Assembly: GCA_947452765.1 (NCBI GenBank)
Contig: CANGDR010000002.1
Location: 24,407 to 88,406, forward strand
Origin: Actinomycetota bacterium
Lineage (GTDB): Bacteria > Actinomycetota > Actinomycetes > S36-B12 > UBA5976
DNA: 64,000 nt
Direction: 5' to 3'
Positions within the stretch are counted from its first letter, which is position 1. Each line of letters begins with the position of its first letter. The notes under the pieces are model-generated. The model did no database searches and had not been told where the DNA came from. It worked only from the letters and a program-made list of their open reading frames with translations. Positions 30,602 to 37,993 of the stretch are shown in pieces. The position numbers and the translations under genes are program-made.

Positions 30602-31060
30602 ATGTCCAAAGTCACTGTTCTCGATGATGTCTCCAAAGCCATCATCGAGCAACTGCAGCAAGACGGACGGCGCCCTTACGCAACTATCGGTAAGGCTGTT
30701 GGATTATCCGAAGCTGCAGTTCGCCAACGGGTTAGCAAACTCCTGGAAACCGGAGTTATGCAGATCGTTGCGGTAACTGATCCACTACAAGTCGGATTTA
30801 ATCGCGAAGCGATGATCGGAATTGAAGTTGATGGTGACATGGAAGCAGTCGCAGACGTGCTTTCTGAGATGGATGAGATCAGTTACATCATCCTGACGGC
30901 AGGAAGCTTCGACATAATTCTCGAAGTTGTCTGTGAAGACGATGAAGCACTTCTTGAAGTGATCAATCGTCAGATTCGTGCGATTCCTGGGGTCCGACGC
31001 ACGGAAACATTCATGTATTTGAAACTGCGCAAGCAGAGCTATACCTGGGGAACCCGCTAA
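30602..31060 (+). CDS. Lrp/AsnC family transcriptional regulator
   Basis: N-terminal HTH LDDVSKAIIEQLQQDGRRPYATIGKAVGLSEAAVRQRV plus a C-terminal RAM-like domain. 152 aa. Confidence 0.9.
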   Translation: MSKVTVLDDVSKAIIEQLQQDGRRPYATIGKAVGLSEAAVRQRVSKLLETGVMQIVAVTDPLQVGFNREAMIGIEVDGDMEAVADVLSEMDEISYIILTAGSFDIILEVVCEDDEALLEVINRQIRAIPGVRRTETFMYLKLRKQSYTWGTR

Positions 31061-31080
31061 CTAAAAACATTGGATACGTA

Positions 31081-32469
31081 ATGACAGCACTAGAAGATAG
31101 AACAAAGAACTCGGCACTTTCAGACATGGCGCGCGATCGCCTCTGGATGCACTTCACTCGTCACTCCACTTACGAAAACGGTGGCGAAGTTCCAATCATC
31201 AGTCGTGGCGAAGGTGCATACATTTATGACGAACACGGCAAGAAGTACCTCGATGGTCTAGCAGGCCTGTTCACAGTTCAAATTGGCCACGGTCGACGCG
31301 AACTTGCCGAAGCAGCTGCAAAGCAGATGCAGGAACTATCCTTTTTCCCACTTTGGTCATATGCCCACCCAAAGGCAGTAGAGCTAGCCGAACGCTTGAT
31401 TAGCTACGCACCGAGTTCACTTAACCGTGTCTTCTTCACCACTGGTGGTGGCGAAGCCGTTGAGTCCGCTTGGAAAGCAGCCAAGATGTACTACAAGCTA
31501 ACCGGCAAGCCGATGAAGCATAAAGTTATTAGTCGCGCAGTTGCATATCACGGCACTCCACAAGGCGCACTAGCAATTACAGGTATTCCAGATGCTAAGA
31601 AGTATTTCGAGCCGTTAACTCCTGGTGGTTTCCGAGTTCCAAATACTAACTTCTACCGCGCCGAGTATCACCAAGATGACATCAAAGCATTCGGTCGTTG
31701 GGCTGCAGATCGGATTGAAGAAGCAATTCTTTTTGAAGGCGCAGACACAGTTGCCGCAGTATTCCTTGAGCCAGTTCAAAATTCCGGTGGTTGTTTCCCA
31801 CCACCACCGGGATACCTAGAGCGAGTTCGCGAAATTTGCGATCAGTACGACGTACTTTTCGTCGCTGATGAAACAATCTGTGCTTTCGGACGTATCGGTG
31901 ACATGTTTGCGATGAAGCGTTTCGGTGTAGATCCAGACATCATCACAACTGCAAAGGGTATGACTTCGGGCTACTCCCCAATCGGTGCAATGCTAGTTGG
32001 CGACAAAGTGTTCGAACCATTCAAGAAGGGCAACACTTACTTTGCGCATGGTTACACCTTCGGCGGTCACCCAGTTTCTGCTGCAGTTGCTCTAGCTAAC
32101 CTAGATATCTTCGACAAAGAAGGAATTAACCAGCACGTTCGCGATAACGAAAATCAATTCCGTCAAACTCTTGAAAAACTCAAGAATCTTGACATCGTTG
32201 GAGACGTTCGTGGCGAAGGCTTCTTCTATGGCATCGAGCTCGTAAAGGACAAAGCAACCAAGGAATCATTTAACGATGATGAATGTGAGCGATTGCTTCG
32301 TGGCTATCTATCTAAAGCGCTATTCGAAAATGGTTTGTACTGTCGCGCCGATGATCGTGGCGACCCGGTAATTCAGTTGGCACCGCCACTAATTATTGGT
32401 CAGCCAGAATTTGATGAGATCGAACAGATCTTGCGCCATGTGCTAACAGAGGGACAGAACATCCTCTAA
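31081..32469 (+). CDS. class III (omega-amine) aminotransferase
   Basis: PLP lysine context DIITTAKGMTSGYSPIGA, FVADETICAFGRIG, 462 aa. Confidence 0.88.
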   Translation: MTALEDRTKNSALSDMARDRLWMHFTRHSTYENGGEVPIISRGEGAYIYDEHGKKYLDGLAGLFTVQIGHGRRELAEAAAKQMQELSFFPLWSYAHPKAVELAERLISYAPSSLNRVFFTTGGGEAVESAWKAAKMYYKLTGKPMKHKVISRAVAYHGTPQGALAITGIPDAKKYFEPLTPGGFRVPNTNFYRAEYHQDDIKAFGRWAADRIEEAILFEGADTVAAVFLEPVQNSGGCFPPPPGYLERVREICDQYDVLFVADETICAFGRIGDMFAMKRFGVDPDIITTAKGMTSGYSPIGAMLVGDKVFEPFKKGNTYFAHGYTFGGHPVSAAVALANLDIFDKEGINQHVRDNENQFRQTLEKLKNLDIVGDVRGEGFFYGIELVKDKATKESFNDDECERLLRGYLSKALFENGLYCRADDRGDPVIQLAPPLIIGQPEFDEIEQILRHVLTEGQNIL

Positions 32470-32487
32470 TGACCGGTATTTACAAAA

Positions 32488-33153
32488 ATGACTAGCTCAG
32501 TTGGAGCGACGGACCGAACTTCGGTCCGTCGCTTTCCTGAAAAAGCAGTTAAAGAACGAGAAGCGATCAACAGTATTCTCGATGCTGGATTAGTTGCGCA
32601 TGTTTCATGCGTTGTAGACGGCCAGCCATTTGTGATGCCAGTTGGTTACGCTCGCGATGGTGATCGAGTCCTATTTCACGGGTCAACCGCTTCCCGACTT
32701 TTTAAGACGTTAGCGACCGGTCAACCTAGTTGTTTTACGGTCACATTGCTTGATGGCATGGTGCTAGCCCGCAGTGCATTTGAATCCAGCATGCATTATC
32801 GCTGCGTGATTGCCTTGGGATCTTGTGAAGTGCTTGAAGGCGAAGAAAAAGAAGCAGCATTAATTCGAATCACTGATCATTTACTACCTGGTCGCACTGA
32901 TGAGGCTCGAAAGGCTGCACCTAAGGAATCAAAAGCAACTTTGGTGCTTGCCCTCAACCTCGATGAGGTTTCTTGCAAAGTGAGTGAAGGCGATCCCGAT
33001 GATGTACCAAGCGATCTGACGGATCCAATTTATTCAAACATCTGGGCTGGCTACGTTCCAATGACGGAAGTCTTTGGTGAACCCGTCTCAGACCCACTTA
33101 CAACCGAAAAGAATATTCCAGTCCCGGACTACATAAGGAAATGGACTCGCTAA
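32488..33153 (+). CDS. pyridoxamine 5'-phosphate oxidase-like (FMN-binding split-barrel) protein
   Basis: Size and the pattern ..GLVAHVSCVVDGQPFVMPVGYARDGDRVLFHGS.. are typical of the Pyridox_ox_2-type family. The call is tentative. Confidence 0.55.
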   Translation: MTSSVGATDRTSVRRFPEKAVKEREAINSILDAGLVAHVSCVVDGQPFVMPVGYARDGDRVLFHGSTASRLFKTLATGQPSCFTVTLLDGMVLARSAFESSMHYRCVIALGSCEVLEGEEKEAALIRITDHLLPGRTDEARKAAPKESKATLVLALNLDEVSCKVSEGDPDDVPSDLTDPIYSNIWAGYVPMTEVFGEPVSDPLTTEKNIPVPDYIRKWTR

Positions 33154-33154
33154 C

Positions 33155-34537
33155 ATGACCGACTACCGCTCTAAATCCTTCTGGTGGAGCACGCTTTCCG
33201 AAGAACTAGCTACCGCAAATCGGCCAGCGCTGTATAGCGAGATCGATGTTGATGTAGCGATAGTTGGTGCGGGATACACCGGACTGTGGACCGCCTACTA
33301 CCTGCAACGGCAAAACCCAGACCTAACAATTGCGATTTTGGATGCAGAAGTTGCTGGCTTTGGAGCTTCGGGTCGCAACGGTGGTTGGTGCTCGGCCTAC
33401 TTCCCTACTGAAATCGACAAACTTGGTCGGGAATTTGGGCGCGATGCGGCGCGAGCTATGCAGGACGCAATGCATGACACGGTTACTGAAGTTGAAAACG
33501 TAGTTCGCGACGAGAACATCGATTGCGATTGGAAGCGAGGCGGCACTTTAATGTTTGCTCGAACCCCATTGCAGTGGAAACGTGCTCAAGAATATATTCA
33601 GCACTGGCGGGACTGGGACTACGGCCCCGAAGACTATTCCTTGCTTTCTGCAGCTGAAGCTAAAGAACGCGCTACTGCCGCGAATACCTTTGGGGCAACT
33701 TACACGAAACATGTTGCTGCAATTAATCCAGTAAAACTAGTTCGTCGTCTAGCCCAGATTGTTGAATCTCGCGGTGCAACGATCTATGAACACAGTCCGG
33801 TTACTCGGATTGCACCTGGTGTTGCGCAAACCGATAACGGATTAGTTCGTGCGCGGTATGTAGTGCGTGCTACCGAGGGATATACGAAAACAATCGCAGG
33901 AGCAAAGCGCAAGATTGCTCCTATTTATTCACTAATGATTGCCACTGAACCCCTTGGGGATGACATCTGGGAACAAATTGGTCTGAAGGAACGCGAAACT
34001 TTTGGTGACTGGCGAAACTTGGTCATCTATGGCCAACGGACTGCAGACAATCGGTTCGCATTTGGTGGCCGAGGTGCGCCTTATCATTTTGGTTCCACAA
34101 TTAAATCGGAATACGACAAGCATGAAGGAGTTCATTCCTCACTACTCGATGTACTTGCTGAAATTTTCCCAGTTGTAGCGAATGCAACCGTGACGCACTC
34201 ATGGGGTGGACCACTTGGCGTCGCTCGTGACTGGATGGCATCGGCTGGATTGGACCGCGAAACGGGCCTTGCTTGGGCCGGTGGCTACGTAGGTGACGGT
34301 GTTGGTACTACCAACCTTGCTGGACGTACCTTGGCAGATTTAATCACCCACCAAGACACCGCAATTACAAAACTTCCTTGGGTTAACCACAAATCCCCAA
34401 ATTGGGAAGTTGAACCACTTCGTTGGATTGGCGCTAATGCTGGCCTTCGAATCATGACAGCAGCAGATAACTCTGAAGATAAGAGTGGTAAGCCATCAAA
34501 GCTTGCAGCTGTTGTCAACGGTTTCTTAGGAAAGTAG
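33155..34537 (+). CDS. FAD-dependent oxidoreductase (DAO family)
   Basis: VDVAIVGAGYTGLWTAYYL..ILDA dinucleotide fold. Paralog of 27361-28782. Start is 1 nt after the upstream stop. Confidence 0.8.
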   Translation: MTDYRSKSFWWSTLSEELATANRPALYSEIDVDVAIVGAGYTGLWTAYYLQRQNPDLTIAILDAEVAGFGASGRNGGWCSAYFPTEIDKLGREFGRDAARAMQDAMHDTVTEVENVVRDENIDCDWKRGGTLMFARTPLQWKRAQEYIQHWRDWDYGPEDYSLLSAAEAKERATAANTFGATYTKHVAAINPVKLVRRLAQIVESRGATIYEHSPVTRIAPGVAQTDNGLVRARYVVRATEGYTKTIAGAKRKIAPIYSLMIATEPLGDDIWEQIGLKERETFGDWRNLVIYGQRTADNRFAFGGRGAPYHFGSTIKSEYDKHEGVHSSLLDVLAEIFPVVANATVTHSWGGPLGVARDWMASAGLDRETGLAWAGGYVGDGVGTTNLAGRTLADLITHQDTAITKLPWVNHKSPNWEVEPLRWIGANAGLRIMTAADNSEDKSGKPSKLAAVVNGFLGK

Positions 34538-34543
34538 TTCTAG

Positions 34544-35383
34544 ATGGCCGCAATACTCCTATCCCTAATAAGTGCAGTTCTCTATGGGCTAGGTGATTTT
34601 TGGGGAGCGCTTGCATCTCGGCGTTCGCACATCTTGCAGGTTCTACCTGCAATCTTGATTTCTGGAACTTTAACGGTTTACTTACTGATTCCATGGCTTG
34701 GCGCCGACTTCACGCCTGATGCAATTAAGTTCGGAGTTGCGAGTGGATTCTTTGGCGGCGCAGGATTCTTTATCTTTTACCGCGCACTTGCTATCGGACC
34801 TATGGGAATTGCCAGCGCAATCATCGCTATTGTTTCCACTGCAATCATGTACATAGTTGATGTGTTAAAAGGAACTAGCGTAACTCCATTAGGAATTGCG
34901 GGTGCAATCGTCGCTATGCTTTCCATCGTTTTAGTTTCAAAATCAACCGAAGATGCAACCCATCCAGTAACCGCAAAAATGGTAAAAGCTGCCGTCTTCG
35001 CTGGGGTAATTGTTTCTGGCTTCTTCATGTTGTTGGCTTATGCACCGAAAGATGTTGGCGTGGCAACTTTTGTCTGCACTCGTACTACGCAACTGGTTCT
35101 AATACTTGCCGCAGCATTTATCTGGCGAAATAAGATCACCCGAGGCGCGAAGCCTAAACTGGCAATGTCAGTTGGGGCGGGCGTAGGCGACGCACTTGCT
35201 GCAGTTGCATTTATCTTTGCTAATCACACAGGTTCACTTGCTTTTGTTGCCGTTATTTCAAACTTATATCCAGCAGTTACCTTGATAATTGCGCACTTTG
35301 TTATTCATGAGCGCGTTGAGCGACATCAATATATTGGCATGGCTGGAGCAGTTGCTTCGGTTGCTCTTCTAACGCTGGCCTAA
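34544..35383 (+). CDS. DMT-superfamily (EamA-like) transporter
   Basis: 279 aa and polytopic. Clearly alignable with the 37157-37993 paralog (..GDFWGALASRRSHILQVLP.. vs ..GDYWGGLATRHSPLLKVLP..). Confidence 0.7.
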   Translation: MAAILLSLISAVLYGLGDFWGALASRRSHILQVLPAILISGTLTVYLLIPWLGADFTPDAIKFGVASGFFGGAGFFIFYRALAIGPMGIASAIIAIVSTAIMYIVDVLKGTSVTPLGIAGAIVAMLSIVLVSKSTEDATHPVTAKMVKAAVFAGVIVSGFFMLLAYAPKDVGVATFVCTRTTQLVLILAAAFIWRNKITRGAKPKLAMSVGAGVGDALAAVAFIFANHTGSLAFVAVISNLYPAVTLIIAHFVIHERVERHQYIGMAGAVASVALLTLA

Positions 35384-35447
35384 GCGGCCGAGATTCTAAC
35401 TCTGGCCTAAGCGGCCGTGATTCTAACTCTGGCCTAAGTAAGCCAAG
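35367..35447. repeat. 27-nt tandem repeat (about 2.7 copies) duplicating the transporter 3' end and stop codon
   Basis: ttctaacgctggcctaagcggccgaga / ttctaactctggcctaagcggccgtga / ttctaactctggcctaagtaagccaag. The period is exactly 27 (ttctaac at 35367, 35394, 35421). Confidence 0.9.
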
Positions 35448-36186
35448 ATTTAATTTGGTATCCAGCGTCAGTCAGAGTCTGGTGAATCGAAGCAGCTGAG
35501 GCGACTGCCCCAGGAGTATCGCCATGCAGGCAAATGGATTCTGCCAATACTGAAACTGGAGTCGCTTCGTTAGATGCAATTACGCCAGTTTCCAACCACT
35601 GCAAAACCCGCTTTGATATTTCCGCTTCATCTTCCAAAACTGAACCACTTACGGTTCGTGGAACGAGCGTTCCCACTGGTAAGTAGGCGCGATCAGCGAA
35701 GAATTCATGTACCGAAGTTAGGCCAGCTTCACTTGCTACGGACTTTGTCATTTCAGAGTCAGGAATTAGCACATGAAGTGTGGCGTCAATGTCTGCAATC
35801 GCATCTATCACTGCCTGTGCCTGGGATTTATCGTGTCCCATTCGGTGATACAAAGCGCCATGTGGTTTGACGTACTTCATTTCGCCGCCAGCTAGTTTTA
35901 CAATTTCCAGCAAATCGTTAATTTGATCGAAAACCAATTTGCGTAAATCTTCATAGGAAATTTCTACATCGATTCGGCCAAAGTTTTCCCGGTCGTCATA
36001 TCCAACGTGGGCCCCGATGACTACACCATGTCGAATTGCAGCCTCGACAGCTTTACTCATGGAATCTGGACCGCCGGCATGCCGACCGCAACAAATATTC
36101 GCGCTCGATAAGTACTGGTACATCGCCTCATCATCGCCACACTCTTCGGCTAGATCAGCGTTTAGGTCTATTCGGGTTACGCCCAT
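35434..36186 (-). CDS. pxpA: LamB/YcsF family protein (5-oxoprolinase subunit A-like, PxpA)
   Basis: IDLNADLAEECGDD..SSANICCGRHAGGP..GAHVGYDD motifs. Likely start ATG 36186 overlaps the upstream gene by 10 nt. Confidence 0.8.
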   Translation of the reverse strand: MGVTRIDLNADLAEECGDDEAMYQYLSSANICCGRHAGGPDSMSKAVEAAIRHGVVIGAHVGYDDRENFGRIDVEISYEDLRKLVFDQINDLLEIVKLAGGEMKYVKPHGALYHRMGHDKSQAQAVIDAIADIDATLHVLIPDSEMTKSVASEAGLTSVHEFFADRAYLPVGTLVPRTVSGSVLEDEAEISKRVLQWLETGVIASNEATPVSVLAESICLHGDTPGAVASAASIHQTLTDAGYQIKSWLT

Positions 36187-37013
36187 GGTTTTGCCTTCAA
36201 ACCATGGCGTCCGGCATACTGCGCGAATTCCGGCTGCTTCCAACCGGCAAGCAATGAATCGGTTGGCTTAAAGACTTCAATCCCGAGCGGGCGACATACA
36301 TCCACCGGATCTTTTGCATCTGGTCCCCACAGTGGAACTGATAGATCGCCACCAGGGCAAGTAGAGAGGGCTGCGATTAAATCGATCTCTGCGAAGAATT
36401 CAAAGTAGTCGCCTTTTTTAGCTGGGCAAGTTTTCATGAAGTATTGATCTTTGTCATTTAGGCCGGTGCACTGGAAAACGTTTAGTACGTCATGTACGTC
36501 GAATTCCGTCATACCAAAAGGAAGTACAGCTCGGACTAAGTTGGAATGACAGTGATAATCAAAATCCTCACCAGTCAACATGCGATTTACGTAAGGGTCG
36601 CAGCGAGTTCCCAAAAGATCGTGGACTCTCCCGCCTTCGTTATCTACTCCGTAATTTTCTAATGTGTCAGCAACGATGGTTGCCATCGGGCGTAGGTAAG
36701 GCAGCGTGGACCAAAGGCGGTTAAAGGTAGTTAGGTGGGCTGCGTGTAGTTGCTTAGTGCGCGAGGCCCAAAACCGCTCCCTTGGGTTATCTGCACTCCA
36801 CAGATTTAGGTCTGCAACTTGTGGACCTTCGATGGTTGTAATGCGACAAACTGATCCGGCAGGAATCTTCCAGCCAATGCCACTACGGATTGGCAAGTGG
36901 ATCGATTCGGTTAACTTGCGCGCGCCATCATTGGCAATTGCGCGGTAAAAGTCGCGATCGACATCTAAGGGGCCACCTTCAGTGGCTTGGTATGCAGCAG
37001 CTGTTAAGTCCAT
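36177..37013 (-). CDS. DUF1989 (urea-carboxylase-associated) family protein
   Basis: Pattern ..IEGPQVADLNLW.., ..HDLLGTRCDPY.., ..CHSNL.., ..GDYFEFFAEIDLIAALSTCPGGD.. matches my recollection of DUF1989. Confidence 0.65.
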   Translation of the reverse strand: MDLTAAAYQATEGGPLDVDRDFYRAIANDGARKLTESIHLPIRSGIGWKIPAGSVCRITTIEGPQVADLNLWSADNPRERFWASRTKQLHAAHLTTFNRLWSTLPYLRPMATIVADTLENYGVDNEGGRVHDLLGTRCDPYVNRMLTGEDFDYHCHSNLVRAVLPFGMTEFDVHDVLNVFQCTGLNDKDQYFMKTCPAKKGDYFEFFAEIDLIAALSTCPGGDLSVPLWGPDAKDPVDVCRPLGIEVFKPTDSLLAGWKQPEFAQYAGRHGLKAKPWA

Positions 37014-37156
37014 GCGACGAGACTAACATCCGGAATCTGGCAGTGCCCTTCAGTCTTAGGGTTCACTAATGCCAGCAACACAGCCAATAAGACTCGACCA
37101 AAAAATAGTTCCAGTTTCCCTGCTCCTAGCAATACCTATGGCTAGGGTGAGTCTCA

Positions 37157-37993
37157 ATGGTTGCTATCCTGCTTGCATTCGGATGCGCGCTTTCCTATGG
37201 TTTCGGAGACTACTGGGGCGGCCTTGCAACGCGCCATAGCCCGTTACTGAAAGTCCTTCCAATCACGGTTGTAACTGGCTTGATTTCCTTGCTAATTGCA
37301 TGGCCAATCTTGGGTGCTGACTTCTCTCGCCCAGCGGTAATTTCTGGTTTGCTTGCGGGCACAGCCGGTATCGCTGGCTACATATTTGTGATGAAGTCAC
37401 TTGGTCTAGGGCCAATGGGCGCGGTTGCACCGATCACTGCGTTAATAGCAGTGATTATTCCATTCTGTGTTGGCCTATTCCGGGGCGAGCGATTGACGAT
37501 AACAGGTTCAATCGGTGCGCTGCTCGCCATGATTTCAATCGGATTGGTCAGTAGATCGACAGTTGACGCTACTCACCCGCTAACTAAAACTGCAGCTATC
37601 TATGCGGTGCTTGGCGGACTTGGTTTCGCAGGCTTTCTATTAGGAGTCAGTAGCGCGCCAAAGGAGTCGGGGCTGGCGCCAGTCATAATTGGTCGAATTG
37701 TTACTTTGGTTGTCTTTACCGTCGCCATGCTCGTCACCTGGAAGCGCATTGCAGATCAACCCGTCGATTACAAGCGTGCGGCGGCGGCTGGTGCACTCGA
37801 TGTTTGGGGTGGCGTCACTTTTATGATGGCTACTCAGCATGGACAACTGGTTTTGGTTTCGGTAATCGCAGCGCTGTACCCGGCGATAACCGTATTGCTG
37901 GCTCGAGTCTTCCTAAAGGAGCGACTCGAGAGACACCAAGTATTTGGACTCTTTGGCGCTGGTCTAGCGATAATTTTGCTGACAGTTTCCTAA
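37157..37993 (+). CDS. DMT-superfamily (EamA-like) transporter, paralog of 34544-35383
   Basis: 278 aa, collinear similarity to the other copy over the full length. Confidence 0.7.
   Translation: MVAILLAFGCALSYGFGDYWGGLATRHSPLLKVLPITVVTGLISLLIAWPILGADFSRPAVISGLLAGTAGIAGYIFVMKSLGLGPMGAVAPITALIAVIIPFCVGLFRGERLTITGSIGALLAMISIGLVSRSTVDATHPLTKTAAIYAVLGGLGFAGFLLGVSSAPKESGLAPVIIGRIVTLVVFTVAMLVTWKRIADQPVDYKRAAAAGALDVWGGVTFMMATQHGQLVLVSVIAALYPAITVLLARVFLKERLERHQVFGLFGAGLAIILLTVS

Follow-up and report, generated by a model that had tools for sequence, protein, structure and literature searches.

A gene of the DUF1989 family and a pxpA gene of the LamB/YcsF family overlap in a stretch of DNA of 64,000 nucleotides (nt) from an actinobacterial genome (hereafter the window; contig CANGDR010000002.1 of assembly GCA_947452765.1, positions 24,407 to 88,406). 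Prokaryotic PxpABC, the ATP-dependent 5-oxoprolinase, is represented by YcsF/KipI/KipA in Bacillus subtilis, by YbgL/J/K in Escherichia coli, and by the pxpR-pxpTABC genes in Corynebacterium glutamicum. In this enzyme, PxpBC act by phosphorylating 5-oxoproline, whereupon PxpA opens the ring and removes the phosphate (PMC13274462). No pxpB, pxpC, or biotin carboxylase gene is present inside the window. What does a pxpA gene do in such a place, and why is a DUF1989 gene joined to it? The locus is a rearranged variant of the known system. We consider it probable that the pair is the relocated first half of a DUF1989-pxpABC operon of this bacterial family and that its PxpA most likely works with an unlinked PxpBC pair encoded on another contig (C7).

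Both genes of the cassette lie on the minus strand. The lead gene encodes a DUF1989 protein of 278 amino acids (aa) (36177..37013; PF09347, E 4.6e-54). It is followed by pxpA (35434..36186, 250 aa; PF03746, E 1.8e-78), the predicted A subunit of an ATP-dependent 5-oxoprolinase. PxpA matches positions 1-238 of the 239 positions of PF03746, which is the full profile, and passes the NCBIfam model of the PxpA subfamily (NF003814) with 268.8 bits against a cut-off of 226. The stop codon of DUF1989 is the TAA at 36177-36179, and the ATG of pxpA at 36186 lies inside the DUF1989 frame. As read from the sequence, the overlap comprises 10 nt on the minus strand (36177..36186, ATGGGCGTAA). The pair and its overlap had been described in an earlier reading of the window from its letters alone (the original prediction), and the profile searches agree with that description. 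An overlap between the start of pxpA and the end of DUF1989 also occurs in the six Nanopelagicales loci in which both open reading frames (ORFs) were called, indicating translational coupling of the two genes.

The source genome (G000) is available as an assembly of 1.60 Mb in 46 contigs with a completeness of 91.65%; the window belongs to contig C2. The original prediction had noted the lack of pxpB, pxpC, and biotin carboxylase, which holds for the window and fails for the genome, the only matches being on contigs C7 and C11. A single pxpB-pxpC pair was found genome-wide (one PF02682 and one PF02626 match) at C7:4966-6653. Its genes overlap by 4 nt, and the Pfam domains of PxpB and PxpC are clear (E 6.5e-46 and 1.8e-48, respectively). 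The pair is flanked by an SDR gene on one side and by GDSL, ornithine-cyclodeaminase (OCD), GNAT, and argininosuccinate-synthase genes on the other. The window copy is the only LamB/YcsF (pxpA) gene of the genome, and pxpA (C2) is not clustered with pxpBC (C7). No hydantoinase-type (OplAH-type) 5-oxoprolinase was found in the genome. Biotin carboxylase is represented by one frame of 588 aa on C11; hence, the genome lacks a urea (or guanidine) carboxylase.

The distribution of the genes was surveyed in 61 genomes of the same family of freshwater actinobacteria. pxpA is present in 11 genomes and directly follows the 278-aa DUF1989 gene in 10 of them; G162, the remaining one, has them on separate contigs. 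pxpB comes directly after pxpA in 8 of the 11 genomes. The full DUF1989-pxpA-pxpB-pxpC row was seen in G093, G055, G117, and G025, which were examined in detail, and in other Nanopelagicales loci. Every pxpA genome (11/11) has exactly one pxpB match, and the lone pxpB match without pxpA is a contig-end fragment in a 77%-complete genome. The operon-type pxpBC is missing from G000, G065, and G097, and the C7-type pair occurs only in these three genomes. The two types of pxpBC share only 26-34% identity. The C7-type PxpC has its nearest relative, within a sample of 400 other genomes of the phylum, in a protein (40% identity, full length) encoded approximately 800 nt from a pxpA gene on the same strand, with space for pxpB between them. 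The tallies of pxpA and PxpC in this phylum sample include two unpublished genomes (G299 and G350), and the conclusion is independent of both.

The four-gene form is ancestral, and the window pair is the remnant, the front half, of a DUF1989-pxpABC operon. Read most simply, the gene content means that one pxpBC pair took the place of the other, PxpA working with whichever pair is present. As in the known PxpABC systems, the genome encodes a full-length PxpA above the NCBIfam cut-off, one PxpB, and one PxpC, and the three genes are consecutive in its relatives. Distinct from these systems, pxpA is separated from pxpBC in this genome, and its pxpBC are of a more divergent type than those of the relatives' operon. 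The operon of the relatives is headed by the DUF1989 gene, unlike the C. glutamicum operon, which has pxpT at its head.

The cassette has also changed its place. In the congeners examined, it lies near a methylenetetrahydrofolate reductase (MTHFR) gene and an ABC-F gene, with argG a few kb away, and in most of them its place is directly between MTHFR and ABC-F. In G000, 68 nt separate MTHFR from ABC-F on contig C19, and no gene lies between them. The present surroundings of the cassette are fully syntenic with those in congeners, where the order is HDAC-like, DAO, ALDH, Lrp, class III aminotransferase, PNPOx-like, DAO, EamA, EamA, and ACAD. The order from Lrp to the second DAO is kept in G007, G055, G093, G065, and G097, and the two EamA genes are 23 nt apart in G007, G093, and G065. 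The gene order of the window, DUF1989-pxpA-EamA1-DAO-PNPOx-aminotransferase-Lrp, recurs on an independent metagenome contig (L122); therefore, the relocated arrangement is not an assembly artefact. The pxpA genes of the window and L122 differ at 10% of their nucleotides, with a ratio of nonsynonymous to synonymous substitution rates (dN/dS) of 0.12; thus, the relocated pxpA is under purifying selection. The last 99 residues of the two DUF1989 proteins are identical, and the DNA is 93% identical.

The GC content of the cassette equals the genome average. Apart from a local 27-nt array, no flanking direct repeat or target-site duplication was found around the pair. No long terminal inverted repeats flank the pair either, with no search aimed at transposase genes; the longest inverted repeat (18 nt) lies within the EamA1 and DUF1989 coding regions. 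In G055, another insert of 3.7 kb (L118:9775-13477; G055:C2) occupies the space between the EamA genes, so the spot is variable, and insertions seem to recur at the inter-EamA junction in the genus. The G055 insert encodes a 393-aa protein without an NCBIfam match, a TetR-family regulator, and a 368-aa protein.

These observations can be accommodated by two steps. First, the operon would have lost its own pxpBC, leaving a different pxpB-pxpC pair (C7) as the only one present. Second, the two-gene cassette would have left the MTHFR/ABC-F site and entered, on the opposite strand, an Lrp-controlled amine operon to which it is unrelated, between the tandem EamA genes. PxpA and the C7 PxpBC would most likely constitute an ATP-dependent 5-oxoprolinase, which we propose with fair confidence. 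The division of labour would be the usual one: PxpBC would phosphorylate 5-oxoproline, and PxpA would open the ring and dephosphorylate the intermediate to glutamate. Translational coupling would ensure that DUF1989 is made in a fixed ratio with PxpA.

The second half of the question concerns DUF1989. The original prediction regarded these proteins mainly as urea-carboxylase-associated, a view that is now dated. CgdAB (UAAP1/UAAP2), a member of the DUF1989 family, is a carboxyguanidine deiminase (Schneider et al. 2020, cited in PMC11271267). Tdm, the trimethylamine N-oxide (TMAO) demethylase, consists of DUF1989 and GcvT domains, of which DUF1989 is the catalytic one; this domain holds a Cys3 zinc site, and the same cysteines were noted in the structures 3DI4, 3ORU, and 3SIY, the solved DUF1989 structures being reported to have a zinc site (PMC12560246). 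The characterised DUF1989 relatives (CgdAB and Tdm) cleave C-N bonds in small nitrogen compounds. The window DUF1989 shares the Pfam family with CgdAB, whose reaction releases ammonia from a small carboxylated nitrogen compound. Unlike CgdAB, it is encoded by a single gene and not by a heteromeric pair, the second DUF1989 gene of the genome being on contig C23, and no guanidine or urea carboxylase accompanies it in the genome. Its scores fall far below the cut-offs of the CgdA/CgdB equivalogs (TIGR03425, 50.4 vs 206 bits; TIGR03424, 47.5 vs 285 bits) and of the Tdm model (NF053776, 19.3 vs 1100 bits). It has a single domain and, unlike Tdm, carries no GcvT domain.

The window DUF1989 belongs to the subfamily of SPO0365 of Ruegeria (Silicibacter) pomeroyi, a structural-genomics entry (PDB 3DI4; phmmer E 3.9e-74), with which it shares the conserved Cys/His-rich motifs. 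Homologues with approximately 70% identity occur in Micrococcales, Pseudonocardiales, Burkholderiales, Alphaproteobacteria, Halomonas, and the green alga Trebouxia, and fungal homologues are 50-60% identical. An AlphaFold2 (AF2) model was built from a 33-sequence alignment (predicted local distance difference test score (pLDDT) of 94); an earlier AF2 model from 12 near-identical sequences was discarded (pLDDT 54). The model used superimposes on 3DI4 with a VIA Z of 37 and a root-mean-square deviation of 1.6 over 258 residues, and Foldseek returned E 2.4e-34 and a TM score of 0.87; the structural alignments give 46-47% identity. The comparison with 3ORU gave Z 23. Among the non-DUF1989 structures searched with Foldseek and a wide VIA search, no match exceeded Z 5. 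The idea that DUF1989 shares the cyclophilin-like fold of PxpB/PxpC and acts as their stand-in gained no support, the Foldseek and VIA matches being DUF1989 entries only.

Three cysteines (C138, C155, and C219) are candidate ligands of a Cys3 zinc site. Conservation across 33 diverse sequences is at least 90% for C138 and C155, and C219 is invariant among 12 close sequences. They were matched to C263, C279, and C343 of Tdm by spacing only, which is 16 and 64 residues in Tdm and 17 and 64 residues in the window protein. The window DUF1989 is a predicted Cys3 zinc enzyme. Between genera, DUF1989 is 77-83% identical and the co-translated PxpA 49-56%, a sign that the DUF1989 protein is under unusually strong constraint. 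A search for DUF1989-LamB fusion proteins found none; the DUF1989 fusions seen were miscellaneous, mostly fungal gene models. In one cluster of 10 sequences (P0122; Saccharopolyspora spinosa and others), a 651-aa protein joins this DUF1989 to a PF00291 domain of the diaminopropionate-ammonia-lyase family, which is pyridoxal-phosphate (PLP) dependent. The fusion may be a clue to an amino-acid-derived substrate.

The neighbourhoods of DUF1989 were compared in the best 80 loci of the subfamily in a collection of species-representative genomes (1.17 Mb in total). Neighbours were assigned by ORF clustering and Pfam, which is crude in high-GC loci and left about half of the 80 loci unannotated. pxp genes lie within approximately 8 kb of DUF1989 in 15 of the 80 loci. 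In 12 of these 15, pxpA directly follows DUF1989 on the same strand, and in 9 of the 12 pxpB and pxpC come next. Such DUF1989-pxpA(BC) rows were found in Nanopelagicales, Corynebacterium, Streptomyces, Planosporangium, and Pseudonocardiaceae; in Gulosibacter and two Arthrobacter species, DUF1989 and pxpABC are divergent. Where pxp genes are not nearby, GntR/FCD regulators accompany DUF1989 in 11 loci; the other neighbours include ABC importers of the polar-amino-acid and Liv types, enzymes with an amidase signature, and proteins resembling Asp/Glu racemases.

In C. glutamicum, the repressor PxpR has a dissociation constant (KD) of 0.7 μM for 5-oxoproline, and its operator, the 17-mer AGATTGTTCAACAATCT, was confirmed by mutation and deletion (PMC13274462). 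With at most 3 mismatches, this operator occurs 16 times in the 80 loci, against a simulated mean of 0.3 and a maximum of 2 under a first-order Markov model, an enrichment of approximately 50-fold. A core-pattern search found additional PxpR-like sites. In approximately 15 loci, the site lies 116-160 nt or 750-930 nt upstream of DUF1989; for the 750-930 nt sites, a GntR gene precedes DUF1989 wherever annotation was possible. Site-bearing loci were found in Leucobacter, Arthrobacter, Streptomyces, Nocardiopsis, Amycolatopsis, Actinospica, Planosporangium, Burkholderia, and Paraburkholderia, as well as in Pseudonocardiaceae. In Paenalcaligenes, the site is just upstream of the adjacent importer gene, and in other Burkholderiales loci the sites are several kb from DUF1989. 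The GntR proteins linked to DUF1989 form one group with 40-60% identity across phyla and are 31-38% identical to a pxp-adjacent GntR of Gulosibacter; they are PxpR-like and not demonstrably PxpR. Four Burkholderia loci (L058, L084, L093, and L096) have a second, identical PxpR-like palindrome (AAATTGTTGAACAATTT) approximately 6 kb downstream of DUF1989. It lies approximately 1 kb past a polar-amino-acid ABC permease/ATPase gene, which is adjoined by an amidase gene in two of the four loci. This palindrome and the site upstream of DUF1989-GntR would fit a small regulon with two operators in Burkholderia.

Taken together, the linkage to the pxpABC operon, the strict co-presence in small genomes, and the PxpR-like operators point to a role of DUF1989 in 5-oxoproline metabolism. 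Our best guess, held with low confidence, is that DUF1989 acts just before the 5-oxoprolinase and supplies or processes its substrate. The most likely reaction would free ammonia or an amine from a compound of the glutamine, gamma-glutamyl, or amidine type, giving 5-oxoproline or a close lactam. A broader formulation is that the 3DI4-type DUF1989 is an unrecognised enzyme of 5-oxoproline metabolism. It would perform a zinc-dependent C-N cleavage of a common amide or amidine nitrogen compound to yield 5-oxoproline or a near relative, be co-regulated by PxpR-like repressors, and, in Actinobacteria, be translated together with PxpA, the lactam being handed directly to the 5-oxoprolinase. We offer this as a tentative possibility. 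The D-glutamate-cyclase-like gene ycsI in the pxp operon of B. subtilis would be a precedent for a lactam-forming enzyme encoded in an operon of this kind.

Several points weigh against the reading given here. The pairing of this PxpA with the C7 PxpBC is deduced from gene content, and the reaction suggested for DUF1989 is a guess. Both C7 proteins score below their curated cut-offs (PxpB, TIGR00370, 117.4 vs 145.6 bits; PxpC, TIGR00724, 174.8 vs 230.2 bits). The replacement of pxpBC may be a single event because G000, G065, and G097 are close kin. In 65 of the 80 subfamily loci, no pxp gene lies within approximately 8 kb of DUF1989, and no DUF1989-pxpA adjacency was found in the 400 other genomes of the phylum, of which 89 have pxpA and 40 have any DUF1989. 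The adjacency is rare when viewed from the pxpA genes and recurrent when viewed from this DUF1989 subfamily. The ligand of the DUF1989-linked GntR proteins need not be 5-oxoproline, given that they are only 31-38% identical to the pxp-adjacent GntR. Unlike in C. glutamicum, no PxpR-type (GntR/FCD) regulator was found at the window locus, and no PxpR-type operator with at most 4 mismatches was found near the cassette in the window.

An alternative is that DUF1989 has no relation to 5-oxoproline: an independent, nitrogen-scavenging zinc hydrolase that, by chance, became the first gene of the pxp operon in a single actinobacterial lineage and was passed on with it. The company of most subfamily loci (amino-acid-type ABC importers, amidases, and Asp/Glu-racemase-like proteins) fits such an enzyme, as does the fact that none of the 89 other pxpA genes of the phylum sample adjoins DUF1989 and that the DUF1989-linked GntR proteins are a group of their own. 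Against it stand the repeated occurrence of the linkage, in Nanopelagicales and at least five further actinobacterial lineages, and the complete co-presence (11/11) in streamlined genomes with a patchy distribution. The coupling was retained after relocation and under purifying selection, and PxpR-type operators are strongly enriched in DUF1989 loci. We regard this alternative as rather unlikely.

The original prediction took the pair as a self-contained unit that opens a cyclic amide or ureide without PxpBC and is supplied by the two flanking DMT transporters. The 10-nt overlap agrees with a unit of two genes, which were indeed kept together through both the displacement of pxpBC and the move of the cassette, and the window does lack pxpBC. 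The genome, however, has pxpBC, and as far as location goes this already speaks against the proposal; across the family, pxpBC track pxpA one-for-one, with one pxpB in each pxpA genome, and the ancestral form is DUF1989-pxpABC, of which the pair is a remnant. The lack of DUF1989-LamB fusions is a further point against it. The transporters do not belong to the module either. EamA1 (34544..35383, plus strand; PF00892, two repeats) and EamA2 (37157..37993, plus strand; PF00892) are paralogues, as the original prediction had stated (39% identity, E 1e-60). They are not both oriented away from the pair, as it had also stated: with both genes on the plus strand, EamA2 alone diverges from the start of DUF1989, and EamA1 runs towards the 3' end of pxpA. 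In congeners without the cassette at this site, the EamA genes are adjacent, even in G007, which has neither the 278-aa DUF1989 nor pxpA and whose sole DUF1989 match is of the short second type. The EamA2 orthologues of G007, G093, and G065 are 76-79% identical to the window protein. The EamA genes are the end of the Lrp-aminotransferase-PNPOx-DAO operon and are independent of the DUF1989-pxpA pair. Because they belong to this neighbouring operon, the amine-catabolic surroundings, which had been read as an amine/lactam-type functional context, are a consequence of the relocation. A PxpBC-free unit with its own transporters is very improbable.

That the pair is a decaying remnant, in which pxpA became useless after the loss of pxpBC and the C7 pxpBC serve another role, is in keeping with the below-cut-off C7 scores and with a cassette in a variable spot that holds another insert in G055, but it is scarcely credible for two intact frames, a PxpA above its curated cut-off, a dN/dS of 0.12 between two lineages sharing the relocated arrangement, and a DUF1989 with an identical C-terminal stretch in both lineages encoded by DNA that differs.

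We therefore return to a displaced DUF1989-pxpABC operon whose PxpA most likely works with the C7 PxpBC. What the original prediction observed at the locus was largely right; its reading as a PxpBC-free, transporter-equipped module was not. The arrangement reflects gene displacement and relocation in a streamlined genome and not a PxpBC-independent lactam-opening module with its own transporters. The original prediction knew of no characterisation of the enzyme pairing, and no publication characterising it was found; the pairing is real and conserved in the family. In the literature searched, the link of a conserved DUF1989 lead gene to the 5-oxoprolinase is undescribed. It provides a testable handle on a large, highly conserved protein family with a structure solved since 2008 and no assigned function. 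5-Oxoproline forms unavoidably from glutamine and glutamate; hence, an additional enzyme that feeds or serves its salvage would be of importance to the recycling of nitrogen, in oligotrophic freshwater bacteria as well as elsewhere.

Further features of the locus and the genome were recorded. The host operon segment of the window (Lrp, class III aminotransferase, PNPOx-like, and DAO oxidase; 30602..34537, plus strand) was assigned by Pfam and serves as context only. EamA1 is 84% identical to its counterpart in G097. The congener EamA at the position of EamA1 (L117:10666-11499) is 60% identical to EamA2, and EamA1 is only 39% identical to EamA2. Those lineages from which the operon-type pxpBC was lost thus seem to have undergone a replacement of the first tandem transporter as well. 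The divergent spacer of 143 nt upstream of DUF1989 (37014..37156) is the presumed promoter region of the cassette; a consensus scan of this spacer found no sigma-70-like promoter.

The second DUF1989 gene of the genome (G000:C23:13253-13825; L007:6254-6859) encodes a 201-aa protein that is 28% identical to the window DUF1989 and scores as more Tdm/UAAP2-like. It lies between an Indigoidine_A (pseudouridine-5'-phosphate-glycosidase-like)/PfkB kinase pair and an acyl-CoA dehydrogenase gene and stands alone, with neither a carboxylase nor a GcvT domain. Its orthologues are present in several congeners without the pxp set. At the junction of EamA1 and pxpA, a 27-nt tandem repeat of approximately three copies (35367..35447) holds the stop codons of both convergent genes; no copy was found on the opposite flank of the cassette. 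The metagenome contig has one copy fewer than the window (L122:1040-1070), so the copy number of the repeat differs between lineages.

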